64,000 nt of DNA from Dehalococcoidia bacterium (GCA_965262385.1 CBDHFB010000016.1:3510032-3574031), one strand, 5' to 3'. Counted from the first letter of the stretch, positions 44,829 to 63,615 are shown. Program-made: numbers and translations. Notes: generated from the sequence alone by a model not told the origin.

Positions 44829-45395
44829 GTGGCGCTATCGGCAACGCGGGTGAAGGCTCTCAGAGACCCAGGGCGATACTCCGACGGCGGTGGCCTGCAT
44901 CTCTTCATAAGCAAAGCAGGAACCAAATCCTGGGTTCAGCGCATCACAATCGACGGGCGCAGGCGGGATATCGGCCTGGGCGGATCTCCTACGGTGAGCC
45001 TTGCCCAGGCCCGCAGCAAGGCTGCCGACAATCGGACCGCCGTTGCCGAGGGCCGAGACCCTTTCGACGAAAAGCACGCCCCGGCGATGCCGACCTTCAG
45101 GGAAGCTGCCCACCATGTCCACGAGGCGAACAGGCCCCGTTGGCGCAGCGGTAAGCACGTCGCGAACTGGATGCAGACCCTGGAGCGCCACGCCATGCCG
45201 ACCCTGGGCAGCATGCCCCTGGACAGGATGGACAGGTCCGCCATGCTGCGAGTTCTGACCCCGATCTGGACCAACCGTTTCGAGCGTCGCCGTGCACTGA
45301 TGCAGCTGTGGGCGGACTACGTCACCGGCCTGCCTGTGGGTGTGCCGGAGCAGGAGAACCTCATCGAAGGCTCAGTTCAGCCGGTCGGCGTTTAG
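44829..45395 (+). pseudogene. P4-type tyrosine integrase with the catalytic domain deleted
   Basis: N-terminal DUF4102/arm-binding pattern LSATRVKALRDPGRYSDGGGLHLFISKAGTKSWVQRITIDGRRRDIGLG, then ...VLTPIWTN joined directly to ERRRALMQLWADYV. That last segment looks like the extreme C-terminus of this integrase family. Confidence 0.65.
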
Positions 45396-48658: not shown

Positions 48659-48849
48659 ACCCCACCGACCTCGCTCCCACTAAGGGCTCCTGCTGACACC
48701 CGCCGCTGGGTGACATTCATGCTGAACACCGACGCCCAGGTGGTACACTGTTGCTCCGCCCCGTGGCCTAACATCCCTCCGCCCTTGACAGTCGGCAGCT
48801 TCAGCTCCTTCAGGTGGTGCTCCAGCAGCACCGTAGACCTGTCGCTCAC
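48659..48849 (-). pseudogene. istB: istB, N-terminal ~60 codons only
   Basis: VSDRSTVLLEHHLKELKLPT... is a typical IstB start. Cut by the IS at 47341-48658. Confidence 0.55.
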
Positions 48850-50344
48850 CGCCCGCTCACCGACGTGAGCGCCATGTAGTCGCCGGCCGAGGTCTTCTGC
48901 ACGCTGACCCTGGGCAGGTAGGGGTACAGCTGCAGGTCGAGTCTCTGGGGACGACCCTCTATCCTGCACAACACCAGGTGCTTGACGGCGTCGAAGCTTA
49001 TGGCCCCGAGCCTGAGGGCATCGCGCACGCCCTCGTACACCTCCTCATTGCGAAAGTTCTCCATCAGCCGCAGCACCTGTACGAACTCCCGCTTGCCGCG
49101 CCTGCCCATCCTCGACTCCAAAAGACGCCGCAGCACGCCGAACTCCTGGGGCAACTCCCACCCGGCCAGCGGAGCGGCCTGATCCAGTGCTCCGGTCTTG
49201 CGCTCCAGCAACGCCAGGTAGTGGATGGGGTCGAAGACGAAGTCGTCGCGTTCGTATGAGCGCCGATGCCAGGCTATCACCTCTGCCCCGCAGCTGATCA
49301 CCACCTCTCCTACATAGCCCCTCACCACAACCTCCATGTGACGTAGGCCACGGGCACCGAGTAGTCGTTGGTGCGGTACCGCACCAGGGACAGGGAGCTG
49401 ACACGGCTGACGTGCTTGTCGCTGGCGTCGTATGGTACGGCGGGAAGCGGCAGCGGGGTCTCCAGGTCACGCTCCATCCGCTGGCCTATCGTCTCGGTGT
49501 GTCCACGCAGCTGTCTTCCCATACGTTCCAGGCACCGCTCCTCGAGGTAGGCGTTGAGCGCGTCGAAGCTCGCAAACGACGGTATTGGCACAAGGAAGTT
49601 CCGGCGCGCATATCCCACCAGTCCCTTCACCTTGCCCTTGTCGTTACCCTTCCCTGGACGACCGAACCGGTCCTCGAACAGGTAGTGGGATACCAGCTCA
49701 GAGAACACACGAGTACGCTGGCGCCGGCCGTCTCCCAGGATCCTGGCCACCGCCAGTCTCGTGTTGTCGTACAGGATGCTCCGCGGCACGCCGCCCAGGA
49801 ACGACAACGCAGACACGTGGCCGTCGCAGAACGCCTCCGTGGTCTCTGCGGGGTAGGCCTTGACGAAGCACGCATCGCTGTGGGGAAGGTCCAGCACGAA
49901 GTAGTGGACGGTCTGCTCCACACCTGCGATGACCGCTCTGGCCTGGCCGAAGTCGCACTGGGCGTGACCGGGAGGATGAGACAGCGGAACGTACATCTCA
50001 CGCGTCCGGCGACGCCGCTCACGCACGTAGTCCTTGACTATGGTGTAGCCGCCGGGGAAGCCGTGCTCAGCTCTCAGACGCTCGTAGATCCGCTTCGCCG
50101 TGTGCCGCTGCTTCTTCGGAAGACTGCGGTCATCCTCCAGGATACGGTCGATCACCCCGCGGTACGGGTCCAGCTTGGGGCGGCGCAGCGGTGACTGTCG
50201 ACGGTATCCGGGAGGCACCGAGTACTGAAGCATCTGGCGCACCGTATCCCGGTGCAGGCCGAACACCCGGGCAGCCTCCCGTGTGCTCATCTCCTCCACC
50301 ATGCAGGCCCGGCGCACTCGAACGTACAGTTCCACTTTGTACAT
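48846..50344 (-). pseudogene. istA: istA (IS21 transposase) with a frameshift near 49325-49340
   Basis: A 340-aa ORF (HTH plus DDE core, ...NDYSVPVAY) and a 163-aa ORF (MEVVVRGYVGEVVISCG...) are consecutive parts of one IstA in different frames. Confidence 0.75.
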
Positions 50345-51200
50345 CCTTCACACCTTCCATCGAGTTGCCTCCAACTCTATAGAAGGCGGCGGGTGGTACA
50401 GTTTTCAAGCGCTACTCCTCAGCGCTCGACCCCGCCTCTCCGGTCCATTATTACTCCGCCCTTTACAGATACCGGCTCGACATCCACCAGCTTCCAGCCG
50501 TCGGCGACCAGCAGGTCGTAAGCATCCCAGGCTTGGGCGAACACTGCCATGCGCCGGTCACGATACTCCCAGGCAGCAGCAACCTAGCCACATAGATTCT
50601 TCCGCAGCCCCAGAATGAGGACCCGCAGCAGCAAAGCTAAGTTCCGCTCCATCGGCGACTGATCCCGCCGTCTAACTCGCCTCAGGGAGAGGTCCCTAGC
50701 TCGAGCCGAGCATCGCCCGTCCCACGAGGCTCGAACCGGCCATCAGGGTCGTGATGCTGAAAGGGGAGACGACGAGTGCTCCTCAGGGACGTTAGCACCG
50801 CGCAAGAATGGTGTCGTTCGACTACGTGCTGGCTTGAATTCCACCGCCCACGAGTACCTGAGTATTTCGTATCCTTTGTGAACTGCGAATGTTGGCTCAC
50901 AGTCCGTCGAGCCACATCTCGAAGACGGTTCTGGCTACCGTACACGTTGGTGGAGACGGCCGGACAGGAAACATTTTGCGGAAGAAATGATCAACACCTT
51001 GGAGCAGCGGAAGTGGTCATGGCTGCAGGAAGACAGGCGGCCGATGTTGCTCGGTGTGTCGTGGTGTTGGAGCAGGTTTTCCTGAGCAAGCGCGTTTGGT
51101 ACGGCGGTGTCCTCCCCAGCGTGGCCCGGTTTCCGGCCCTACCTCTCACCCAGAACCAGTGTCTGAAGAGATCGAACCCGCCACAGACTCACCTTGATGG

Positions 51201-54200
51201 TCACTTCCGTAGGAATTTGGTCACGTAGTCAACGTCGACTACGGGCATTCCCATACCGAGTTCCGACAATGCTTCGGAGAACCGGGTGATGTCGTAGACA
51301 CTGGTATCGGATAGGTACGGCTCGACTGACTCCAGGGACCGGACCAGAACTTTCAACTCCATGTCCTCGTCCCGGTCGGCCATTGTTCCCAATCTTGATT
51401 TCCAGTCCCCTAATTGAGCGCGGTCCGCCACGTATCCGTGGTGCTCCATATAAGAAAAAACTTGATCGGCGGGTACGGGGGCCTGTTGGACCACGTTGTA
51501 TACCCTGCCCAGGTGCCTGGGATCGTCGGAAAGTTTCGTTATCGCCTTGACCAGAAAATCGACCGGCGTCATCTCGAAGAACCAATCCGGCGCCAAGGGG
51601 GCACATCCGAGGCGGGCGCAAGCCTTGATAGTCAACGAGAGAAAGTCATTCGGGTTGACCGTGCCCGTACCGCTGTGGTGGCCAATGTTGCCGGGACGGA
51701 AGATGCATACTGGCAGTCCTCGTGACTCAGCCTGCCAGAAGAGCCGTTCCGCAACCCATTTGGCTTGATTGTAGCCCCCCTCCATCCTGTCAACGAAGCT
51801 GTCTATGTCGCTGTTTTCAAGGTAGGGGTTGTCGTCTCCTCCCGGGAAGACGCCGTTGGATGAAATGTACTGGACCGGCTTGGTTACGTCGGTGCAGGCG
51901 AACTTGAGCACCTCCAAAGTCCCGCCGACAGTGTGGGGCTTGGCTGCGGAATAAGGGTAAGCGTAATTGACGGAGGCGGCGCAATGGAAAATCAGGTCGA
52001 TCTCTTTTGCCAGCCGCCGGTACTCCTCATCGTCCAGACCCATCCGGGGCCGGGTGAGGTCTCCATAAACCGGAGCGATCCGTTGTTCGGGTGACTGGTC
52101 GGCCAGCCCGTAAAATCTCAGAGTGTCTAGGACGCGGTTGGTGGACCTGTCTTGTCCTGAATCCCGGTCCCTTACCAGGCAGTAGAACCGGGTATCGGTT
52201 CCCGCAGCGCGCAGCAGCTCGTCCAGCAGAAAGGCTCCCAGGAATCCGGTAGTTCCCGTCACGAGGACTGAGGACGCCTCGCTGAGACGCGTAATTCTCG
52301 GGGCGCCTCCTGGTGAAATATCCGGGTCCAGGATCGAGTCCTCGGCCAGCGGAATTCTGGATTCCATATTCGGCCCTCTTTCTTCCAAGTACGCTCCCAA
52401 CTCACTTATGGTGGGGTACTCGTAGATCTCTGTGCCCCGCAGCTCGATCCCGAAAAGCCGTTCGATGCCCAGGGTGAGTCCCAGGCCCGCCAGGGAATGG
52501 CCGCCGAGGTCAAAGAAGTTCCAGTCATCTTCCAGTGATTCAGTGTCGACATCCAGCGCTTCGCTCCATAGCTCCCGCAAGACCCTGTGACGCTCGGCTG
52601 CGGTTGCGTGCTTGGAAAGCCTACCGCGCCGCTTGACGGCGGGGCTCGTGTTCCGCAGTGCGGGCAACGCTTTGCGCTCCAGTTTGCCCGTCTGTTGATT
52701 TAATGGGAGCGTCTCCAGTTCCATGAAGTGGCTGGGCACCATGTAAAGCGGCAGATGCCGTTCCAGCAGGGCACGCAGGTCTCTGCTCGTCCGGCTCTTC
52801 GCATCGACCTTCCACGCCGCCTGCGGCCCCCGGACGACGTAAGCGACGAGTCGCTTGTTAGCTTCGTCCTCGTTCTCGGCCAACACCGCCGCATCCGCCG
52901 CGTCACAGTGCTGGCGGATGGTCTCCTCGATGGCGCTCAGGTAAACGGTGTAGCCCCTGATCTTGACCATCGAATCGTTACGGCCGATGATCGTTGTCAG
53001 ACCCCGCGCATCAACCTCGGCCAAGTCTCCGGTGGCATAATACCTCTCGCCGTTCCATCTGACAAACCTCTCGGAATCCAGGCCGGGCCTGTTCAGATAG
53101 CCCCGGGCCAGCCCGCGACCGCCAATGAAGAGCTCCCCGACTCCGCTGGAAGCCAGGTCCGACTGCCCTTCCGGGAGCACCCGGAGTGTCACGCCGTCCA
53201 TAGCGTAACCGACCGGGCACGCATCCCTGGTGTCGAGGCACAAGTCCGTCAGTTCAATGGTGCAAACGTCGTGGGTCTCACTGATGCTGTAGGTGTTGAA
53301 CACGCGCGTAGACCGGGGTAGAACGTCCAGGGCCATCTTCAGCAGGCTGGTTGGTACCACCTCGCCGTTGAGCCAGACCACTCGCAGTGAGGACAGGCGG
53401 GCGCGCAATCGTTCTGGGCTTGCCGAGCTCAAAATCCCCTGTAGCAACGACGGAGTGAATAGGACCTCGGTTATCCGGTGCTCTGCTATAAACTTGGTTA
53501 GGGCGCGCGGTGCGAACACCACATCATCAGGAATCACGTAAACGGTTCCTCCCTTCAAAAGCGGCCGGAGGAACTCCCAGGGAAAGAAGACATTGCAGGC
53601 GACCCTGTCCCCGACACCGTAGGAGCTGAACTTGTACCTGGCCAAGTAGGATGAGATCAGGGAGCCGCTGGTCTGCATCACTCCCTTGGGCTGTCCTGTT
53701 GTGCCGGAGGTGTATGGGAGGAACGCCAGGTCGCCGGTGTCAACACAGACTTCACCGTTCTCGGAAGGGACCGCCCTCCAGGACTGGTCGGAGTCAACGG
53801 CCAATAGACGAGGCCCAGCGAATTTACTCAGTCTCGGTAAGTGCCGCGCCTTGGTGATCACCACCTTGGGTTGGGACTCGGACACCAGCGTACCAAGCAG
53901 AGAATCGGGGAGATCCAGGGGCACGGGCATGAAGGCCGCACCGGCCTTCAATGTTCCAATGCTCGCGGTGATGTACTCCGGGCAGGTCTCCATGCATATG
54001 CCTACCGGATCATCGGTTGACACGCCGCAACGTCGAAGGTAGGCCCCCAAGGCATCCGTCGCCTGGTCCAGTTGTGCATAGGATGTCTGCTCGGCGCCGA
54101 AGACTATCGCCGGAGTGTCTGGAGTCTCCGTCGCTTGAGCCTTGAAAAGCTGATGCAAACCACTCTCAGAGGGATTCAATTCGCCATCACAAGCATCCCC

Positions 54201-54212
54201 AAACGTATTCAA
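51201..54212 (-). CDS. NRPS-like adenylation - thiolation - thioester reductase (A-T-R) enzyme, 1003 aa, TTG start
   Basis: A-domain motifs: LPYTSGTTGQPKGV, NTYSISETHD, GELFIGGRGLARGYLNRP, YATGD, GRNDSMVKIRGY, TGKLERKAL. T domain FFDLGGHSLAG. R domain VLVTGTTGFLGAFLLDELL plus YNQAKW. No ATG lies near the 5' end. A stop lies 6 codons upstream of the TTG. Confidence 0.85.
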   Translation of the reverse strand: MNTFGDACDGELNPSESGLHQLFKAQATETPDTPAIVFGAEQTSYAQLDQATDALGAYLRRCGVSTDDPVGICMETCPEYITASIGTLKAGAAFMPVPLDLPDSLLGTLVSESQPKVVITKARHLPRLSKFAGPRLLAVDSDQSWRAVPSENGEVCVDTGDLAFLPYTSGTTGQPKGVMQTSGSLISSYLARYKFSSYGVGDRVACNVFFPWEFLRPLLKGGTVYVIPDDVVFAPRALTKFIAEHRITEVLFTPSLLQGILSSASPERLRARLSSLRVVWLNGEVVPTSLLKMALDVLPRSTRVFNTYSISETHDVCTIELTDLCLDTRDACPVGYAMDGVTLRVLPEGQSDLASSGVGELFIGGRGLARGYLNRPGLDSERFVRWNGERYYATGDLAEVDARGLTTIIGRNDSMVKIRGYTVYLSAIEETIRQHCDAADAAVLAENEDEANKRLVAYVVRGPQAAWKVDAKSRTSRDLRALLERHLPLYMVPSHFMELETLPLNQQTGKLERKALPALRNTSPAVKRRGRLSKHATAAERHRVLRELWSEALDVDTESLEDDWNFFDLGGHSLAGLGLTLGIERLFGIELRGTEIYEYPTISELGAYLEERGPNMESRIPLAEDSILDPDISPGGAPRITRLSEASSVLVTGTTGFLGAFLLDELLRAAGTDTRFYCLVRDRDSGQDRSTNRVLDTLRFYGLADQSPEQRIAPVYGDLTRPRMGLDDEEYRRLAKEIDLIFHCAASVNYAYPYSAAKPHTVGGTLEVLKFACTDVTKPVQYISSNGVFPGGDDNPYLENSDIDSFVDRMEGGYNQAKWVAERLFWQAESRGLPVCIFRPGNIGHHSGTGTVNPNDFLSLTIKACARLGCAPLAPDWFFEMTPVDFLVKAITKLSDDPRHLGRVYNVVQQAPVPADQVFSYMEHHGYVADRAQLGDWKSRLGTMADRDEDMELKVLVRSLESVEPYLSDTSVYDITRFSEALSELGMGMPVVDVDYVTKFLRK

Positions 54213-54278
54213 GCAAAACGGGCGTCTGTTCTAGATTACTAAAGGATAATTACCCAGTTTACAAAATATAGAACCTAA

Positions 54279-55504
54279 GGCAACTCTGAACAAGTCCTTG
54301 GCGGGCTTGCGATTAAGTTAGTGGCATAATGGTGGTGACCAAGCCAATTGTAGGGGGATGATGCCATGGCCGACCAGCCCACCTTCGCCGACCTCGATTA
54401 CGAGCACAAGCGCCACAAGACCCGCAGGGAGAGGTTTCTCGAGCAGTTTGACTCGCTTGTGCCGTGGGAGAGGCTGCAAGAGCGCATCAGGCCACACTAC
54501 CCCAAGGCCGGCAGAGGCCGCAGGCCGTATCCCCTGTCGGTGATGCTGCGGGTTCACGTGGTGCAGGTGACCCACAACTTGAGCGACCCGGCGATGGAAG
54601 ACCTTTTGTACGAGGCGGAATCGGTACGGCGGTTCGTGGGTCTGAAGCTGTCGGAAGCCATACCTGACGAGAGCACCATACTGCACTTTCGCCACTTGCT
54701 GGAGAGGCACGAGTTGGGACAGGGGCTGTTCGAGGAGATCAAAGGCTACCTGGCGGACCAAGGCGTGATGTTGAAGCGCGGAAGCATCGTAGACGCCACC
54801 ATCATAAGTGCGCCGTCGTCAACCAGGAACAAGGCTAAACAGCGCGACCCCGAGATGCACCAGGTGAAGAAAGGGCAGCAGTACTACTTCGGCATGAAGC
54901 TGCACATAGGAGTGGACGCGGAGAGCGGGCTTGTGCACAGCATGGCGACGACATCTGCGAACGTGCACGACGTGACCCAGGCTCACAGGTTGCTACACGG
55001 GGAGGAGCGGGCGGTATGGGGGGATTCCGGGTACACAGGGGTGCACAAGCGGGAGGATATCCGGGGTTCGTCGGCTGGGTGGTACGTGGCGATGAAGGCG
55101 GGGCAGCGGCGGAAGTTGGAGCATGGCAGTGCTGGGGCGATAGCTGAGAAGGTGAAGTCATCGATAAGGGCTAAGGTGGAGCACCCGTTCTGGGGCGCCA
55201 AAGGCGCCTTCGGCTACGCCAAAGTGAGGTATCGGGGCTTGGCTAAGAACACCGAACGGCTTGCGGTGCTCATGGGGTTGTACAATCTGAAGCGAGCACA
55301 GGGGTTGGTGGCCGGCTGAGCCGGGCGCCTAGGGCGAAGTGCGCCCATAATCAGTCTCGGCCCCGAGTTCATGGGCCGCAGGTGGCGAAACAGCCCCAAA
55401 ATCACCTCGAGCAGGCCCCCAATGACGGAAAAACCGTCTGGAACGCCCTCCCAGGACCCCACACAACAACAGTCGCTCACAACAGAGGCTTGTTCAGACT
55501 TGCC
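54279..55504 (+). mobile_element. IS5-group insertion sequence (1226 bp) with a CTAA target duplication
   Basis: IRs ggcaactctgaacaag (54279-) and cttgttcagacttgcc (-55504). CTAA at 54275-54278 and 55505-55508. Confidence 0.85.
54366..55319 (+). CDS. IS5 family transposase (317 aa)
   Basis: PYPLSVMLRVHVVQVTHNLSDPAMEDLLYE, GSIVDATIISAPSS, YFGMKLHIGVD, WGDSGYTG, and KVEHPF...VRYRGLAKN. Confidence 0.9.
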   Translation: MADQPTFADLDYEHKRHKTRRERFLEQFDSLVPWERLQERIRPHYPKAGRGRRPYPLSVMLRVHVVQVTHNLSDPAMEDLLYEAESVRRFVGLKLSEAIPDESTILHFRHLLERHELGQGLFEEIKGYLADQGVMLKRGSIVDATIISAPSSTRNKAKQRDPEMHQVKKGQQYYFGMKLHIGVDAESGLVHSMATTSANVHDVTQAHRLLHGEERAVWGDSGYTGVHKREDIRGSSAGWYVAMKAGQRRKLEHGSAGAIAEKVKSSIRAKVEHPFWGAKGAFGYAKVRYRGLAKNTERLAVLMGLYNLKRAQGLVAG

Positions 55505-55579
55505 CTAAAGTAAATTATGACTCAATATCGATAGTGACTTTCCGTCGCAACGCAATCCGGCGTCTTCAAGGGTGTCCAC

Positions 55580-56269
55580 ATGCGAATCGACTCACTGGAC
55601 TTTTACCGGGAACACGCCCGGAGATATTCCCAGCTATCCCACGAGTTCACCCACTCGGTGTATACCGGTTCCTCTCACCCGGCGCTGAGAGGGGACCTAG
55701 ACCTGCTCAATCGAGTTGTCGAGCTGGCGCGGGGGAGTCGCGGGCTGGACGCAGGGTGCGGGGCGGGAGCCCGGGACGTTCATCTGTTGTATACGTGGGG
55801 GTACGACATCTACGGAATTGACGCGGTGGACGAAAACATCAGCTTGGGCAGAGAGTTGCACCCGGAAATAGCGGACAAGCTCAACGTCGCCGATCTGCGA
55901 GAGCCCCTGCCGTTTGAGTCAGGCTGCTTCGATTTCATCCTATGCAACGCCGTCATACAGCATCTGGCGCCCCAGGTCGCTGAAACCACGACGATCCCGG
56001 AGTTGGCGAGAGTCCTGGCCCCCGGAGGTGTCCTGCAGCTCATGTTCAAGACCGGTTCAGGGGTAGCCACCGTAAGTGACCGGGCCTATGGAGCGGACGG
56101 CCTGGCCAGGTCGTTTCAACTTTACGACGAGCACCGTTTGCTGAGCATCCTCGAGGACTGCGGGTGCTTTCTGGTGAGACCGGAGGGGAGCAAGGACTTG
56201 GGCGGAGTGCTGTATTTCAGCGACCCGAAGCCGATGCGCTACTGCGCCTTCTGGGTGAGGAAGGCTTAG
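55580..56269 (+). CDS. Class I SAM-dependent methyltransferase (229 aa)
   Basis: Motif I LDAGCGAGARD, acidic loop YGIDAV, FDFILCNAVIQHL, and LAPGGVLQLMF. Confidence 0.8.
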   Translation: MRIDSLDFYREHARRYSQLSHEFTHSVYTGSSHPALRGDLDLLNRVVELARGSRGLDAGCGAGARDVHLLYTWGYDIYGIDAVDENISLGRELHPEIADKLNVADLREPLPFESGCFDFILCNAVIQHLAPQVAETTTIPELARVLAPGGVLQLMFKTGSGVATVSDRAYGADGLARSFQLYDEHRLLSILEDCGCFLVRPEGSKDLGGVLYFSDPKPMRYCAFWVRKA

Positions 56270-56279
56270 CCCTACCCGT

Positions 56280-56598
56280 TCACAAGGACAACGGGCGAAC
56301 ATCCAGGGTAGCCGCCGTCTCTTGGATCGCGGCTGCGGACAAGCCCGCGATACCGGCTACTTCGCACTTGAGCCCGGCGTAGCCCGTGGCGAACCGTGCG
56401 CTGCTTTCCAGCGGCCATCATGCCCGGAAACCGTAGATGATTCCGGCCGAAAAGGCGGCGCCGGCCCCGTAGCAGTCAACCACCTTTACCCGCGGCGCCT
56501 TGATGCAATAGGCCTGCCGCCCTTGGGCCATCAGGCAACCCTCTCCGCCGAGGGCCACCAGCACAGTTTCCGTTCCGAGATTGTGTTGTTGTTCAGCA
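56280..56598 (-). pseudogene. PfkB-family carbohydrate kinase, C-terminal fragment with a frameshift
   Basis: ...VLVALGGEGCLMAQGRQAYCIKAPRVKVVDCYGAGAAFSAGIIYGF, then (in another frame) ...LESSARFATGYAGLKCEVAGIAGL. No N-terminal half is present. Confidence 0.5.
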
Positions 56599-56669
56599 TA
56601 AGCGTCACAGGTAACTGTTCAGCAAGAATGTCACATCATCCATAACGTAACGTTGAACCAAAAGGAACA

Positions 56670-56881
56670 GGCAAGGCTTCAGCCAGCGATACGTGAGGGG
56701 CTCTGTGCTTGCGACCACCAACCTGCCGTTCGACGAGTGGACCGAGGTGTTCGGGTCCGAGAGGCTCACCGGGGCCTTGCTGGACAGGCTGACACACCAC
56801 GTGCACATTCTCGAGATGAACGGTGAGAGCTACAGACTGAAGCAGAGCAGACAGACCGCCACTACGCTGTCCTCTGACTGA
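56670..56881 (+). pseudogene. istB: istB C-terminal fragment; IS21 end sequence continues to ~56992
   Basis: ...QRYVRGSVLATTNLPFDEWTEVFGSERLTGALLDRLTHHVHILEMNGESYRLKQS. Terminus-like ggcgccgcccttgaca ends at 56992. Orientation is opposite to istA at 48846-50344. Confidence 0.7.
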
Positions 56882-57037
56882 CCTCCGACCTCAATCCCAC
56901 ACCAGTCAGGGCCGACATTTTCCCTGACTAATTGGACGCAGGTGGCACACTTTGGCACCGCCCCGGAGGTCCAAAATGGCGCCGCCCTTGACATAGGTGG
57001 ATGCCAGGGGTCCAGGCCACGCTTTCGATGTCTACTA

Positions 57038-57850
57038 GGGCCTGTTCACACTAGGGGGTCTGGACATGTTATCATACATGTATGGAACTTACACAAGCTC
57101 ATTACCAACTCATCGAACCGTACCTACCCGTGCAGCGTGGCAATGTGACCATTCCAAACATACGGGTGCTCAACGCTATTCTGTACGTCGCAGAACACGG
57201 TTGCAAGTGGCGAGGGTTGCCGAGTCGTTTTGGCAACTGGCATACCGTCTACATGCGCATGAACCGTTGGGCCAAGAGCGGAGTGCTCGACCGAGTGTTC
57301 GAACAGCTTCAGCGAAAGGGCATTGTGAAGGTCACAATCGAGGTAGCTTCACTGGACAGCACCTCCGTCAAGGTGCATCCCGACGGCACGGGCGCGGCCA
57401 AAAAAACGGACCACAGTCCATCGGCAAGTCCCGAGGCGGATGGACGACCAAGCTTCATATGGTTGCCGCGGATGATCGGACACCCTTAGCGTTCTCGCTC
57501 TCTCCGGGCCAGGCCCACGATGGACCGGAGGGGCGCAAACTGCTCAACCGGCTGGGGCCACAACGAGGGAATCCGCCTCTGGTGATGGATCGCGCATATT
57601 CGGGCGACCAAACACGCCGATTGGCGTTCGATATGGGGTTCACGCCTGTTGTTCCACCCCTGAAAAGTCGCGTGAACCCTTGGGAGTATGACAAAGAACT
57701 GTACAAGAGGCGGAATGAAGTGGAGCGCCTGTTCCGTCGATTGAAGGGGTATCGAAGAGTATTCACGCGCTATGACAAGCTCGATGCGCTCTATGCCGGC
57801 TTTGTCTTGTTCGCAATCATCTTCGACGCTCTACGTAGTGTGAACAGCCC
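57038..57850 (+). mobile_element. IS5-family, IS427-group-like element (813 bp) with a CTA target duplication
   Basis: IRs gggcctgttcacacta (57038-57053) and tagtgtgaacagccc (57836-57850). CTA at 57035-57037 and 57851-57853. Confidence 0.75.
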
Positions 57851-58086: not shown

Positions 58087-58202
58087 GATCTTGTGTGTGG
58101 GCGTATCAGAACCTGCGACTGGGCGCCGCCGTGGAGCGAGCGTGAACCGAGCTCGGGGAGCAGCCATAGCCGGTCCCTCTCTGGCAGCGCTTGCCACCCC
58201 CC

Positions 58203-60725
58203 ATGGGCGAAGTGGAGAGGTGCGCCATAAATAGAGTACTCGACTGGCTGAGCCGGCTGGTAACGGTGCGCCCGTGGGCCACGCTTGTCGTCATCGCGAT
58301 CGTGACACTGGTGTTGGCCGCCGGGATTTCACAGCGCGCGCCGGTGGCGGACAACGAGGTCTTCCTCCCCGGGGACAGCGGCGTCGCCAGGGCGTTGGAG
58401 GAGATCGAGACCCTCTTCAGGGACTCCGATGTCGTCGTCGTAACGCTCGTCTTCCGTGGTGAAGTGCTCACGCCCGATGGACTCGCCCAGATGGACGGCT
58501 TGCTCGGCCGCATCGTTAGCGACCCTGGCGTTGGGGAACTCCTGCCGCCCGTCGACGCAGTCACCGCCCCTACGTTGCTGATGAAACCCCTGCTCCAGGT
58601 GAGCGACTTCGACTCGGTCACGCAGGCGCAGATCGATACGGCGCTTGACCATGCCCGGGCCACCCCGGAGCTCCAACCGGCGCGAACGGCACTCGACGTG
58701 ACGACCGGAACGGACACGGATGGCACGCGGATCACGGTCGCCACCGTCCGGCTGCGCGACACCAGCGACGAGGCCGTTGACGACGCGCAGCTGACGATCA
58801 ACGACCTGGCGGAGGCGGACGAGGGCCCGCTGAGCGTGCGCAGCGTGTCGCTCGCGGTGATTGAGGAGGAGTATCAGGAGGCCACGAGCACCGGCGTGCT
58901 GCCGCTGGTGGGGCTGGCGCTGCTCGTGATCGCGTTGCTGACGCTGCTCTTCATGCGCACGCTCTCCGACCCGTTGCTCACGCTGACGGGGCTCGTACTC
59001 GCGTTGATCTGGACCGTCGGGGCGGAGAGCTGGCTCGGTCCGGGCGCCTTGGATCTGATCGGCCCACCGAACGCGCTCACGGCAACGGTGCCGATCATCC
59101 TGATAGGCCTCGCGGTAGACTACTCGATCCAGGCGGTGTCGCACTACCGGGAGCAACGGATAGCCGGCGAGCCGGTGGGGGTAGCGGTGCTTGCGGGGCT
59201 GCGGAACGTCATCATCCCGCTGGCGCTGGCCGCCGCCACCACGATCGTGAGCTTCCTGGCGAACCTGCTCTCGCCGATCTCGGGGATCGGGGACTTCGGC
59301 GTGGTAGCGGGGCTGGGCATCGGGTTGAGTCTGATCGTGATGCTGACGGTGGTCCCAGCCGCGCGAACGATCATCGACCAGCGTCGCGAGGCCCGCGGAC
59401 CGCTTCCCCCGCCCCGTCCGATCGCAAATGCAATCCCCGGCGTCGACCGGCTAGCGGAAAGACTGGGGACATCCATCACGCGGAGGCCAGCGCCCTACCT
59501 CGTTCTCGTGGTTGCGATGACGGTCGGGCTCGGGTTCGCGGCCTCGGGGATCACCACGGACTTCACTATCCGCGACGTCCTGCCCAGGGACGGGAACTTG
59601 ATCGAGGACCTGAATTCGCTCGATGCCACCTTCGGAGGCTCAACGGAGGTTGTCAGCGTCCTGGTCAAAGCAGAGGTGACGGAGACGCACACGCTCCAGA
59701 ACCTGTTCTCCATGACGGAGGCGTTTGAGGACGACCTAAGCCGGCCACGGGCCGCGGATGGCGCAATGGAGGCTTCGCTCCCTCTGCTCGTGCTCGACTG
59801 GACCACGGACGACGGCACGCCAGGTGACAGGTACGACCCCGGGCTCGAGCGGCTGTTCGCGGAGGCGACAACGGGGCTGCATCTCGATCCGGCGCTGATT
59901 CAGAAGTTCCTTGATGCTCTCGCCGCCACCGATCCCGAAGCCGTGGCGCGGGTTCTGGTCGAGGACCCGGAGGGCATCGACACCACCCTGCTCCAGTTCC
60001 GGGCCTTCTCGGGCGATCCTGAGCGAACCGAGGGGATGATAGAGGACATTGACGGGCTGTGGATCGGCGACGACGACGCTATCGCGATGACATCGCAGGA
60101 CATCATCGTGCTCACCTCCTCGGACGAGATAAGGGATCGCCAGACAGAGGCGATCATCACGACGATCGCGGCAGCTCTCGGCATCCTCACGATCTTCTTC
60201 TGGATAACGCTGCGCCAGCCCGCACTGGGCTTCATCGCGGTAGGACCGATAGTGCTCGTCCTCATCTGGGTGCTGGGCACCATGGCGCTGCTGGGGATTC
60301 CCTACACGATCGTCACCTCGATCACCACGGCGCTCTCGATCGGGATCGGCGTGGACTACACGATCCACGTGATCCATCGCTACCGGGAAGAGTTCACCAA
60401 GCGGCGCAACCCGGAGGCGGCGGCGATCCGGACGCTCGCCACCACCGGCTCGGCTCTGCTGGGCTCGGCGCTGACGACAGCGCTCGGGTTCGCGGTGCTG
60501 ACGCTGTCGCCGCTGCAGTCATTCGAGCAGTTCGGCATCACGGCGGCGATCACGATCGCGTACGCGCTGATCGTCTCCATCCTGGTGGTGCCGGCCGCCA
60601 TGACGGTCTGGGGCGCCTACCAGAACATGCGGATGCGCTCGATGGTAGAGCGCCTGTGGAACGAGCTTGACGTCTTCATCGAGGACACGCACCGGCGCCA
60701 CGAGAAGGACCAAGGCTCGTCGTAG
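58203..60725 (+). CDS. MMPL/RND-superfamily membrane transporter (840 aa from ATG 58203)
   Basis: Two homologous halves. Each has a large soluble loop followed by a helix bundle, with the matching motifs GLAVDYSIQAVSHYRE and GIGVDYTIHVIHRYREE. Confidence 0.8.
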   Translation: MGEVERCAINRVLDWLSRLVTVRPWATLVVIAIVTLVLAAGISQRAPVADNEVFLPGDSGVARALEEIETLFRDSDVVVVTLVFRGEVLTPDGLAQMDGLLGRIVSDPGVGELLPPVDAVTAPTLLMKPLLQVSDFDSVTQAQIDTALDHARATPELQPARTALDVTTGTDTDGTRITVATVRLRDTSDEAVDDAQLTINDLAEADEGPLSVRSVSLAVIEEEYQEATSTGVLPLVGLALLVIALLTLLFMRTLSDPLLTLTGLVLALIWTVGAESWLGPGALDLIGPPNALTATVPIILIGLAVDYSIQAVSHYREQRIAGEPVGVAVLAGLRNVIIPLALAAATTIVSFLANLLSPISGIGDFGVVAGLGIGLSLIVMLTVVPAARTIIDQRREARGPLPPPRPIANAIPGVDRLAERLGTSITRRPAPYLVLVVAMTVGLGFAASGITTDFTIRDVLPRDGNLIEDLNSLDATFGGSTEVVSVLVKAEVTETHTLQNLFSMTEAFEDDLSRPRAADGAMEASLPLLVLDWTTDDGTPGDRYDPGLERLFAEATTGLHLDPALIQKFLDALAATDPEAVARVLVEDPEGIDTTLLQFRAFSGDPERTEGMIEDIDGLWIGDDDAIAMTSQDIIVLTSSDEIRDRQTEAIITTIAAALGILTIFFWITLRQPALGFIAVGPIVLVLIWVLGTMALLGIPYTIVTSITTALSIGIGVDYTIHVIHRYREEFTKRRNPEAAAIRTLATTGSALLGSALTTALGFAVLTLSPLQSFEQFGITAAITIAYALIVSILVVPAAMTVWGAYQNMRMRSMVERLWNELDVFIEDTHRRHEKDQGSS

Positions 60726-60824: not shown

Positions 60825-61955
60825 GTGGTTGCCGACATTGAGCAGTGTGTGGCTCAATTACTCGCTCGACCGGACGGATCCTCAAAGATGACTGACCAGC
60901 AAGTACAGCTCCTTGCCAACCTTCTGGAACGCGCAATCGGCAGCGTGGTAGTGACTCACGACCGTTCAAAACAGCGGATCGACATACCAACGTACCAGCA
61001 AAAGCTGCTGTCGCACTGGAACCGCCACTGGCCGGACTTAGACCTGAACCATCCGCGTCACTTCACGCCCACGGTCACGAGCGACGAACTTCACGAGCAA
61101 CTGCTCGCTACAGTGAGTCGAGAACTGGAACAGCACGTGCGCGACGGCAGAGTTCAAACGGCTGCCATTGTGACTGTCGGGGGTACGGGCCGGGTTTCAC
61201 CTTGGTTGACTTGGTTAGGCGGTTGGTCGAAGTTGCCATCGGAAGAGGCCATTGGCATGCGGCGAGTGCTCTTTATCAGGGTGCTCAAGGCGCCGACGCC
61301 ACCTACCGTTACATAGTGTTGCTTACCGGAGTTCGGTTAGACCACGAATTGATTATCCGACCGGGTATTCGCATGGTTCCGATGCCCAACTCCACCGCTG
61401 AACTTCCCTCCTACTTCCCACATATGTCGTTTGTGGTAGACCAGACAGTTCGGCCGATATTCGCGGATCCCAAACCGCTGAGTCTCCCTGAAGACATGTT
61501 CCAGCGTCAACAAAGTTGCTCCGAACTACCAAACTTGGATGCAGACCAGTTCAGTGATGCACTGTCCTTGGCTAACAAAGGACCAATCGAGCGAGTAGCC
61601 GAATGGACCCATGTGGACCCAGACGCGATTTTCATCCCCCAGTGGCCTTACACGGGAGCAGTACGTTACTACCCCTTTACACTACGTCGGCGCGATTCTG
61701 TTCTGGCTACCGTGGATAGCGTGCAGGAGGCGGTCTCTCTTTACGAAACTCGAATGAGCCTCAGCTCAGGATTGGCTCAGATGCTTGAAGTGCCGATCAA
61801 GCGGTGGATAGAGTCTCAAACTGACCAATCACTGGTTGACGCGTTCATTGATCTGGGCATAGTTTTGGAATCCTTGTGCTTAGACGCAGGCCAGGAGTCC
61901 GAACTAGGCTTCACGTTGCGGCTTCGCTCGGGCTGGTTTCTTGGAAACAGCATTG
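60825..61955 (+). pseudogene. Hypothetical gene, frame broken near 61200 and 3'-truncated near 61955
   Basis: ORFs 60825-61316 and 61202-62038 overlap in different frames and read as one protein (...IVTVGGTGRVSP / LVDLVRRLVEVAIGRGH...). The sensible sequence ends at ...LRLRSGWFLGNSIDE. GC is visibly lower (31/60 in the line I counted, 61321-61380). Confidence 0.4.
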
Positions 61956-61959
61956 ACGA

Positions 61960-62830
61960 GTGTCAAGGGCGGAGGACATCTCCGACCACATGCTGCCCCT
62001 CTTCGTCAGACCCGCAGAGAAGCGCGCCCTCGACCTGATCTCCAACTGGCCCTGGATCGGCCTCGGCGAGCTCGCCGCACTCATGGGCGTCTCGCCCCAG
62101 AGGGCCTCCCAGGCCCTCATCCCGCTGGAGGGGTTCAGGGGTTCGGCCTCGCGGCGCGCATCCGGCACGGTGGCCGGCGACTGGCCCTCACCGATCGGGG
62201 CCTCTCCCTCCTCGCCCGCAGGGACCGCACCTCGGTCGGCGTGGCGAAACGGCGGTGGATCATCGCCCTCGAAGACCGGGATGGCCCCTTCGAGTGGCGC
62301 AACGTCACCGGCAGAAGGGACCGCCAACTGCTCAGGAACATCGAGCACACCGCCGCCGTCCACGGCTTCCTGGCCGCGCTCGCCGCGCAGGCCCCCCTGC
62401 TGGGCTGGGAGATCGTCCAGCTCGATCCGCTCCGGAGGGCCTCCCGCCACTTCCGGCACGACGACCGGATGCGCGCCGTCAACCCCGACGCCTTCGGCGT
62501 CCTGCGCAAGGGCGGGACCCAATGGGCCTTCTTCCTGGAGTGGGAGCGCCGCGCCGTGCGGCCCTCCACCATGTCGGACCGCCTCGCGCCCTATCTGCGC
62601 TACTACTCGTCTCACCGGCCCATCGACGACCACGGAACAAGGCCCGCCGTCCTGGTCGTCTTCGACGACGAGATCGCCCAGACCCACTTCCTGCGCGTGG
62701 CGCGGGAGGAGATGCGGGCCGAGCGGGTCACGGTCCCCCTGTGGGTCTCCCACAAGGGGGCAATAGACGCCCTGGGTCCCCGGGAAGCGCCTGGCGCACC
62801 CCCGGAGAGTGGGAGTCGACCCAGCCCCTC
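61960..62830 (+). pseudogene. Replication-relaxation family protein, frameshifted near 62130 (3' end approximate)
   Basis: An N-terminal wHTH (MLPLFVRPAEKRALDLISNWPWIGLGELAALMGVSPQRASQALIPLEG) lies in one frame. A second frame holds GLAARIRHGGRRLALTDRG...IEHTAAVHGFLAAL...NPDAFGVLRKGGTQWAFFLEWERRAV...LAPYLRYYSS. Confidence 0.6.
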
Positions 62831-63615
62831 CCGCCTTCATCCGCTCTGACGGTATCCGCCACACCCGGTCCTCCACGTCGATCTCGTCCCAGGTGGCGCC
62901 CCTTGCCTCACCGGAGCGCGCCGCCGTCAGGACCAGGAATCGACAGCACAGTTTGGCAGTCATGGAAGCCTGGGACGAATCTACGATCCGGAGACCCGCC
63001 CCGACTCCTGGTAGGGTAGGGCCCTGAGGCGTGCCTTCACCTTGGGCATGGGTGGTAGAGCGCCGTCTATGGCCTCCCCCGCGGGGTTGGTATCCATGAA
63101 GCCATGTGCCATCGCCCATCGGAAGACCGTCCTCATCCGCTGGCGCACCCGTCGGGCCGTCTCAGAACGGGTGGTCCAAATCGGGGTTAGAACTCGCAGC
63201 ACGGCGGACCTGTCTATCCTGTCCAGGGGCATGCTGCCCAGGGCCGGCATGGCGTGGCGAACCAGGGTCTGCATCCAACTTGCTATGTGCCTGGCGTTGC
63301 GCCAGCGGGGCCTGTTCGCCTCGTGTACGGTGGAGGCGGCTTCCCGAAGGTCGGCATCGCGGGGGCCCGCTCTTCGGCCAGGGGATCGCGGCCCTCGGCT
63401 ACCGCGGCCCGGTGATTTGCCGCCTCCTCACGAGCCTGGGCCAGGCTCACGGACGGATATCCGCCTAGGCCGAAATCGCGCCTTCGACTGTCGATTGTGA
63501 TGCTCAGGACCCAGGACTTGCGACGCGATTTGCTGATGAAGAGATGCAGGCCCCCGTCGTCCGAGTATCTACCCGGCCGCTTGAGAGCCCTGACCCGCGT
63601 TGCCGACAGTTCCAT
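62830..63615 (-). pseudogene. Second P4-type tyrosine integrase copy, frameshifted (~63350) and truncated inside the catalytic domain
   Basis: MELSATRVRALKRPGRYSDDGGLHLFISKSRRKSWVLSITIDSRRRDFGLG...PAMPTF, then a 1-nt deletion relative to copy 1 (accttc-gggaagc vs accttcagggaagc). It continues ...VLTPIWTTRSETARRVRQRM... and ...LVLTAARSGEARGATWDEIDVEDRVWRIPSERMKAG, then homology ends. Confidence 0.65.

Follow-up and report, generated by a model that had tools for sequence, protein, structure and literature searches.

ATRR, the product of AN5318 in Aspergillus nidulans, is a non-ribosomal peptide synthetase (NRPS)-like glycine betaine reductase (Hai, Huang and Tang 2019, 10.1101/559534), and homologues have been described in nematodes and diatoms (PMC11050029, PMC13194791). 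It consists of an adenylation (A) domain, a thiolation (T) domain and two reductase domains in the order A-T-R1-R2. Its A domain lacks the Asp235 of canonical A domains and holds the trimethylammonium group of the substrate in an aromatic cage, F201, W204 and W270, with a nearby anion, E304 (10.1101/559534); a later paper adds F202 to the pocket residues (PMC13194791). According to a study of marine betaine cycling, this pathway is unexplored in marine microbes and its transcripts are mostly eukaryotic (PMC9321204). The present analysis concerns a stand-alone A-T-R gene found in a 64,000-nucleotide stretch of the genome of a sponge-type Dehalococcoidia bacterium (GCA_965262385.1, CBDHFB010000016.1:3510032-3574031; hereafter the window), together with a divergent methyltransferase gene (MT1), the remnant of a PfkB-family kinase gene beyond it and an insertion sequence (IS) of the IS5 family located between A-T-R and MT1. 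By alignment and A-domain trees, the A-T-R protein is a bacterial member, with a single reductase domain, of the clade to which ATRR belongs, without being itself an ATRR. It probably reduces a small betaine, presumably glycine betaine, at the expense of ATP and NAD(P)H; it would release an aldehyde, and it is encoded by a mobile and, here, damaged cassette.

The features of the A-T-R gene are listed below; residues follow the 992-aa numbering, obtained by subtracting 11 from the numbering of the 1003-aa frame.

51201..54179, minus strand: A-T-R gene, 992 aa, read from TTG 54179 (stop codon 51201-51203)
54180..54212, minus strand: upstream in-frame extension to TTG 54212, probably untranslated
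52650..54179, minus strand: adenylation domain, approximate limits (Pfam AMP-binding and AMP-binding_C)
53574..53594, minus strand: A4 replacement motif N196-V-F198-F199-P-W201-E202, equivalent to N-x-F201-F202-x-W204-E of fungal ATRR; neither the canonical FDxS nor its Asp235 is present
53373..53375, minus strand: codon of W269 (code position 299), equivalent to W270 of ATRR
53265..53297, minus strand: A5 motif N295-T-Y-S-I-S-E-T-H-D304-V305, in which D304 is equivalent to the cage anion E304 of ATRR
52386..52583, minus strand: thiolation (carrier) domain, with the phosphopantetheine serine S562 in GGHS
51231..52268, minus strand: thioester reductase domain (TIGR01746), with GTTGFLG and the catalytic pair of Y-N-Q-A-K

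Adenylation domain and substrate pocket

Between the conserved DR and WE of the A4 region, A-T-R has 8 residues whereas GrsA and LgrA have 13, and because of this five-residue shortening the FDxS stretch has no counterpart in A-T-R. As the A4 stretch is short, Asp235 could not be placed by pairwise alignment. Indeed, when A-T-R was aligned to LgrA with HMMER and to GrsA by eye, the placement of the five-residue gap was ambiguous: an N-terminal anchor pairs W201 with F234 and E202 with D235, whereas a C-terminal anchor pairs W201 with W239. The question was settled by the alignment with ATRR-type proteins, which crosses A4 without any gap (GDRVACNVFFPWEFLRPLLKGG in A-T-R, GDRVACNVFFIWEILRPLLRGA in Aspergillus terreus) and does not restore Asp235. 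The stretch LWLNGEVV and the A5 pattern N-x-Y-S-x-S-E-x-H-(D/E) are also common to A-T-R and the fungal proteins.

The published cage residues were mapped through database orthologues whose numbering equals that of A. nidulans ATRR. The commonest coordinate set among the fungal matches, including A. terreus ATEG_02403, is F201/F202/W204/W270/E304, which corresponds exactly to the published numbers, and F198, F199, W201, W269 and D304 of A-T-R occupy these columns. F198, W201 and W269 are identical to the residues of the ATRR cage, and the anion E304 is conservatively replaced by D304. No variation occurs at the pocket residues within the A-T-R family, whose 10-residue code reads (I/V)FWSWNTDVK, versus VFWTWN(C/V)E(I/V)K in fungi.

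Distant relatives were searched for with a query of doubled length, which put 992-aa proteins outside the length filter, and scoring was restricted to residues 150-330. The closest relatives of this region (own family excluded by length) are mostly fungal proteins of ~1280 aa, 46-54% identical to it, that carry AMP-binding, PP-binding, NAD_binding_4 and adh_short domains, i.e. the A-T-R1-R2 order of ATRR. Other matches come from corals, green algae, the actinobacterium Mangrovihabitans (A-T-R-R) and a spirochaete (A-T-R), and a further group is formed by ~2400-aa hybrids with polyketide synthase domains from Gammaproteobacteria and Arcobacter. Among the 288 A domains compared, the 127 that carry N-x-F-F-x-W-E are 35-94% identical to A-T-R, versus 26-36% for the 161 canonical A domains, which display NxYGPTE at A5. 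In a tree of 83 A domains (FastTree), all N-x-F-F-x-W-E sequences fall in one long-branch clade, apart from the canonical ones; within the ATRR-type set, the Dehalococcoidia proteins form a branch of their own adjoining the spirochaete protein. The canonical controls were modules of giant multi-module NRPSs, which had occupied the top 150 places, by summed score, in a whole-library HMMER search with the full protein; that search was uninformative on the nearest A-T-R families.

On these comparisons, the odd A4 and A5 motifs are the signature of the ATRR clade. The preliminary description had reported that the Asp normally pairing with the alpha-amino group of the substrate was absent from A4 and that A5 read NTYSISE, and had suggested a substrate other than a standard amino acid. 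Both observations hold and are hallmarks of the betaine-reductase clade, and the suggestion is supported, the pocket not being one for an alpha-amino acid.

The minus-strand frame 51201-54212 is open over 1003 codons. Within it, Pfam places AMP-binding at residues 23-373, AMP-binding_C at 428-506, PP-binding at 544-609 and NAD_binding_4/thioester reductase at 649-994 (1003-aa numbering). All core motifs are unbroken (TSGTTGQPKG, YATGDLAE, GRNDSMVKIRG, the A10 Lys in GKLERKAL, GGHS, GTTGFLG and YNQAK). The last domain is a thioester reductase by its score on TIGR01746 (269.6 bits for a curated cut-off of 213.35), its GxxGxxG motif (GTTGFLG) and its catalytic YxxxK (YNQAK), and both motifs are kept among A-T-R homologues. 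The protein ends after this domain and gives no adh_short/KR match, whereas the fungal proteins carry PF00106/PF13561/PF08659. Because R2, a defining feature of ATRR, is missing, A-T-R is filed as a single-reductase bacterial variant and not as an ATRR. Domain order, intact catalytic motifs, clade membership and the conserved cage are all shown by the sequence comparisons.

The enzyme had been described as an intact protein of 1003 aa starting at TTG 54212. Its frame is open and its domains and motifs are whole, but its homologues have 992 aa and the N-terminus MNSAESGLHQLF. In 47 related loci, an ATG is found at the codon aligned with TTG 54179 of the window, and most of them have an in-frame TGA 4 codons 5' of it; the true start is therefore taken to be TTG 54179, which leaves the extension to 54212 as accidental. 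A TTG occupies the start in the window and in two related loci, L095 and L027, and in the window and L095 a TGT stands in place of the upstream TGA.

Elsewhere in the clade, Mangrovihabitans endophyticus (BMMX01000001.1, L118:8713-15516) encodes a full A-T-R1-R2 protein that groups with the fungal enzymes. Its gene adjoins that of a BCCT transporter (594 bits on the glycine betaine uptake model NF047988), and a neighbouring class I methyltransferase is unrelated to MT1. The ~2400-aa hybrids (P0278, P0279, P0282, P0292, P0297, P0315, P0347 and others, from metagenome-assembled genomes (MAGs) of Gammaproteobacteria and Arcobacter) associate an ATRR-type A domain (code VFW S W/Y N D D V/I K) with KS-AT-KR-carrier and thioesterase-type hydrolase domains; purely speculatively, such a hybrid might add one ketoreduced C2 unit to a betaine starter and thereby form a carnitine-like acid. 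The proteins of two reef corals, P0393 (Acropora palmata) and P0378 (Oculina patagonica), display the A-T-R1-R2 order, an Asp as cage anion and the code VFWSWCLDVK; their neighbours in the A-domain tree are the bacterial polyketide synthase hybrids, not the fungal proteins. The most distant Dehalococcoidia homologue (L025:1249-5803, genome G074; 40% identity, many masked residues) keeps CNIFFMWEFLRPL and NTYSICECHDV. It is divergent from a gene that, from a reading of its translation, we take to resemble a family III (CaiB-like) CoA-transferase.

Proposed reaction and alternative substrates

The A domain would bind a small carboxylate with a permanently cationic head group, most likely glycine betaine. 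This head group would be held in the aromatic cage F198, W201 and W269, closed by the anion D304, without any pairing to an Asp235. By analogy with ATRR for adenylation, loading and reduction, the substrate would be adenylated with ATP and then loaded on the phosphopantetheine arm of the T domain (S562), after which the R domain, homologous to R1 of ATRR, would use NAD(P)H and release the aldehyde (betaine aldehyde). As R2, which converts betaine aldehyde to choline in ATRR, is absent, A-T-R alone should stop at the aldehyde; formation of the alcohol would require another enzyme, unless the single R domain carries out both steps. The methyltransferase and the kinase probably act on the same small molecule as A-T-R, either before or after its reduction. 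The genome of the window also encodes three OpuAC betaine-type binding proteins; these and the BCCT neighbour of the Mangrovihabitans enzyme provide supporting context for a bacterial link to betaine.

Several observations weigh against this proposal. In four positions of its code the pocket departs from that of the fungal enzymes, one of them being the anion (D for E), and the substrate could be an onium acid that is longer or of another kind. Members of the clade do not all use one substrate: PtNRPS1 of diatoms, which also has F-F-x-W, reportedly reduces tryptophan (PMC13194791). R2 is missing, and the surroundings of A-T-R include no conserved aldehyde reductase. The window's genome shows no BCCT transporter, no LicD and no Pfam choline kinase. 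The flanks of A-T-R were also scored in 78 related loci, taken from species-representative genomes that all bear a Dehalococcoidia or Chloroflexota MAG label (several are sponge bins), and no BCCT transporter occurs in any of them. The only phosphopantetheinyl transferase found in the genome is of the AcpS type, and no Sfp-type transferase was seen there, although an NRPS-type carrier domain is encoded. Furthermore, the PfkB kinase resembles sugar kinases, the fold of MT1 is that of a generic methyltransferase, and 11 carrier genomes are devoid of both MT1 and its paralogue MT2. Finally, the full-length AlphaFold2 model, based on 33 close homologues, has a mean predicted local distance difference test score (pLDDT) of 61.6 and was left unused for the pocket and for fold search; because the model is poor, the pocket geometry rests on alignment to the published residues. 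As regards the phosphopantetheinyl transferase, the sole PF01648 match in this 95%-complete genome (G000:C16:3011247-3011579, L105) lies in a 154-aa frame, which is the size of an AcpS.

The differences in the pocket bear first on the identity of the cation. An enzyme of the same type and mechanism could have as natural substrate another cationic acid abundant in sponges and seawater, such as dimethylsulfoniopropionate, beta-alanine betaine, gamma-butyrobetaine or carnitine, proline betaine, homarine or trigonelline, or dimethylglycine. The anion is an Asp and not a Glu, code positions 278, 322 and 331 also differ from those of the fungal enzymes, and fungal ATRR accepts a sulfonium analogue at a lower rate (10.1101/559534); the shorter Asp side chain could leave space for a longer substrate. 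However, the three aromatic cage residues and N271 are identical to those of the glycine betaine enzymes and no neighbouring gene points to a particular alternative. We regard another cationic acid as less likely than glycine betaine, but as a serious alternative.

A more distant alternative is an amino-acid reductase, for example for aromatic amino acids, that would produce an amino aldehyde or alcohol used as a signal or as a pyrazine-type building block. Stand-alone bacterial A-T-R reductases of amino acids are known. The conversion of Trp to tryptophanol reported for PtNRPS1, with its identical F-F-x-W (PMC13194791), would fit such an activity. Nevertheless, PtNRPS1 has a Phe at position 299, whereas A-T-R and the glycine betaine enzymes have a Trp, and A-T-R keeps the complete cage and has no equivalent of Asp235; an amino acid is thus an improbable substrate.

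The A-T-R architecture is also that of generic carboxylic acid reductases (CAR) and of Lys2, which would imply fatty, aryl or alpha-aminoadipic acids as substrates, and weak matches to the corresponding models, NF041592 and TIGR03443, were obtained. These scores are far below the cut-offs (174.4 bits versus 1300 for CAR, 315 bits versus 1030.1 for Lys2) and the A domain falls in the ATRR clade. Comparison with CAR, Lys2 and betaine reductases, as advised in the preliminary description, thus favours the ATRR clade, and a CAR- or Lys2-type activity can hardly be credited.

Cassette, IS5 insertion and genomic context

The gene of the putative betaine reductase belongs to a cassette whose other features in the window are listed here, with those of the IS elements.

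54279..55504, plus strand: IS5-family element of 1226 bp with its transposase at 54366-55319; the genome contains three identical copies
54275..54278: CTAA target-site duplication, left copy
55505..55508: CTAA target-site duplication, right copy
54256..54262: half-site AGTTTAC, which stays on the A-T-R side of IS5
55510..55516: half-site GTAAATT, which stays on the MT1 side and holds the -10-like TAAATT
55580..56269, plus strand: MT1, 229-aa class I S-adenosylmethionine-dependent small-molecule methyltransferase, conserved divergent partner of A-T-R
56283..56582, minus strand: PfkB-family kinase remnant, last 100 of ~326 codons, cut off by IS debris; the truncation is common to L095
57066..57935, plus strand: DDE transposase frame of a second IS, outside the cassette and given for context only

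The element inserted between A-T-R and MT1 is a member of the IS5 family, with a DDE transposase scoring 331.7 bits on NF033581 (cut-off 140), terminal inverted repeats, a target duplication and an empty site in a relative. This relative, L095 (OZ245405.1), shows 99% protein identity; positions 48791-54278 of the window correspond to its positions 13428-7935 and positions 55504-57038 to its positions 7939-6405, the overlap being the duplicated bases. The insertion is recent, since the empty site exists in L095, and IS5 is active in this genome, since three identical copies are present. The limits and the clean CTAA duplication given in the preliminary description are borne out by the inverted repeats and by this empty site. 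Its figure of about 140 bp for the spacer without IS5 agrees with the 137 bp measured from TTG 54212, but the distance from the homologous start, TTG 54179, is 170 bp (42% G+C).

The alignment of this 170-bp spacer across 12 loci, with the two flanks of the window joined, reveals a conserved inverted repeat, A(G/A)TTTAC-N17-GTAAA(C/T)T. In uninterrupted relatives, a consensus promoter scan gives TTTACA-17-TAAATT towards MT1 across this repeat; the mirror sequence towards A-T-R, TTTACT-17-TAAACT, is one match below the scan threshold. In the window itself the scan gives no site, because IS5 splits the element: its target lies inside the 17-bp spacer of the inverted repeat and one half-site remains on each side. 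This promoter-like element may be a pair of overlapping divergent promoters or an operator, and in either case it is split by IS5.

Such an insertion raises the question of whether the cassette of this genome still functions or is a decaying passenger of a degraded island, with frames that have so far been spared. The conserved promoter-like palindrome is interrupted by IS5, PfkB is truncated, the start codon has changed from ATG to TTG, the surroundings are full of transposase and integrase fragments, and MT1 and PfkB pseudogenes occur in several related loci. On the other hand, both frames are whole over 2976 and 687 bp, and the ratio of non-synonymous to synonymous substitution rates (dN/dS) relative to the closest relative is 0.30-0.32, on few changes; moreover, IS ends can supply outward promoters. 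Loss of function thus appears somewhat unlikely, although a substantial possibility. As it concerns expression and not the encoded product, it is compatible with A-T-R being a betaine reductase.

Full-length MT1 is found in the same divergent position, without any IS, in about 36 of the 78 related loci, which differ in their methyltransferase and kinase genes as follows.

30 loci: intact trio, with PfkB, MT1 convergent with PfkB, and A-T-R divergent from MT1 (A-T-R identity 66-92%; the deepest branches of the A-T-R tree are among them)
6 loci: full-length MT1, with PfkB truncated, missing or replaced by an EcKL kinase
about 14 loci: MT2, a 57%-identical paralogue of MT1, with the gene of an EcKL/APH-fold kinase immediately after it; the pair lies no more than 6 kb away, on one side or the other, and MT1/PfkB fragments are often found next to it
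21 loci: no methyltransferase of the MT1/MT2 family within 8 kb

Among the 21 genomes without a nearby methyltransferase, 10 carry an MT2-type gene elsewhere and 11 carry none. The PfkB remnant of the window is 89% identical to the intact gene of another locus, L028. The A-T-R and MT1 genes show purifying selection (dN/dS 0.14-0.30 and 0.12-0.32, respectively). The pairing without IS5 that the preliminary description proposed to look for does exist, and its divergent unit is a conserved one; this unit comprises, however, not two but three genes, with the PfkB kinase beyond MT1, and the pairing is frequent rather than obligatory. The association of reductase, methyltransferase and kinase is real and old, and has been rebuilt with a non-orthologous kinase.

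For MT1, the PDB sequence search, an AlphaFold model (pLDDT 91.2) and Foldseek yielded generic class I methyltransferases only; phosphoethanolamine/phosphobase and glycine/sarcosine N-methyltransferases appear only among many such matches (PDB E about 1e-5, Foldseek ranks 15 and 45, NF041675 E 6e-4). In about 14 of the 78 loci (e.g. L002:4294-5703, P0394), although not in the window, a soluble sulfatase-fold protein is encoded beside either the PfkB-MT1 or the MT2-EcKL module. It carries T-M-P-T-R in place of the formylglycine motif C/S-x-P-x-R, and this Thr nucleophile suggests a phosphoesterase or a phosphotransferase rather than a sulfatase.

These genes might be part of a pathway, undescribed in bacteria, that sponge-associated and marine Dehalococcoidia exchange horizontally around the single-R relative of ATRR. 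A betaine taken up from the host would be converted to its aldehyde or alcohol, the product phosphorylated by either of the two unrelated kinases and N-methylated or otherwise tailored by MT1 or MT2, with the contribution, in some of these bacteria, of the sulfatase-fold phosphoesterase with a Thr nucleophile; these steps would yield a phosphobase of the phosphocholine type, used in symbiosis for the chemistry of the membrane or the surface. This scheme is tentative and rather doubtful, and the idea of phosphocholine decoration is weakened by the above-mentioned lack of Pfam choline kinase, LicD and BCCT in the genome and of BCCT in the 78 loci.

The genome of the window carries one copy of A-T-R and no other NRPS-type gene, and only 12 of 151 genomes sampled from the order carry an A-T-R gene. 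Copies from same-genus genomes are 71% identical, versus 83-87% for those of genomes from other families. This identity pattern, the patchy spread and the integrase and transposase surroundings suggest that co-resident symbionts have exchanged the gene horizontally. The cassette is flanked by integrase fragments (44829-45395 and 61911-63119), one side showing Arm-DNA-bind_3 and Phage_int_M and the other a weak Phage_integrase match, and many transposase remnants surround A-T-R, which fits a location in a degraded, integrase-bracketed island. On direct reading, positions 56690-56881 presumably encode a C-terminal fragment of an IstB-like IS21 helper (...LTGALLDRLTHHVHILEMNGESYRL...). In the window, this fragment and the frame of the second DDE transposase, which contains an A7 run at 57400-57406, stand where the 5' two thirds of the PfkB gene would be. 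Beyond the transposase debris lies, as previously described, the gene of an MMPL transporter (58191-60725), which is not a conserved neighbour.

Comparison with known systems

To our knowledge, the reduction of glycine betaine to choline is known only from eukaryotic ATRR, and literature searches found no description from bacteria. If the proposed activity is correct, a conserved bacterial single-reductase relative would be an unrecognised betaine sink in sponge holobionts, where these osmolytes are abundant. Its distribution among sponge-associated Dehalococcoidia is patchy, with apparent tree incongruence, and its gene is associated with that of a methyltransferase and with kinase genes that can replace one another. 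The compact 992-aa enzyme would also allow biochemists to test how an NRPS-type A domain reads a quaternary ammonium. The gene family is thus of interest; the copy of the window is damaged, with both remaining frames intact, and provides a dated and clean case in which an active IS5 has split a conserved divergent promoter or operator and the empty site can be compared.

Compared with described members of the IS5 family (NF033581), this element is in no way unusual: it has a DDE transposase with a DUF772 N-terminus, a size of ~1.2 kb, short inverted repeats and a 4-bp CTAA duplication. With the CAR of Nocardia and Mycobacterium (NF041592) and with Lys2 (TIGR03443), A-T-R shares domain order and presumably chemistry based on ATP and NADPH, release of an aldehyde and the need for phosphopantetheinylation. 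Its A domain is, however, of another lineage, with scores far below their cut-offs and a pocket apparently built for a cation.

The closest described system is ATRR. A-T-R differs from it by the lack of the short-chain dehydrogenase/reductase-type R2, so that no alcohol would be expected from this protein alone, by an Asp instead of the Glu anion and by S/T/V instead of T/C/I at three other code positions. Furthermore, it is bacterial, patchily distributed and located in a mobile cassette with a methyltransferase and a kinase. Nevertheless, the A-T-R1 core is 36-39% identical over its length and 46-54% across A4-A5. Both enzymes display the same five-residue shortening of A4, the loss of Asp235 and the motifs N-x-F-F-x-W-E and N-x-Y-S-x-S-E-x-H-(D/E), and both have the F, W, W cage with an acidic residue at the published positions and fall in one A-domain clade.

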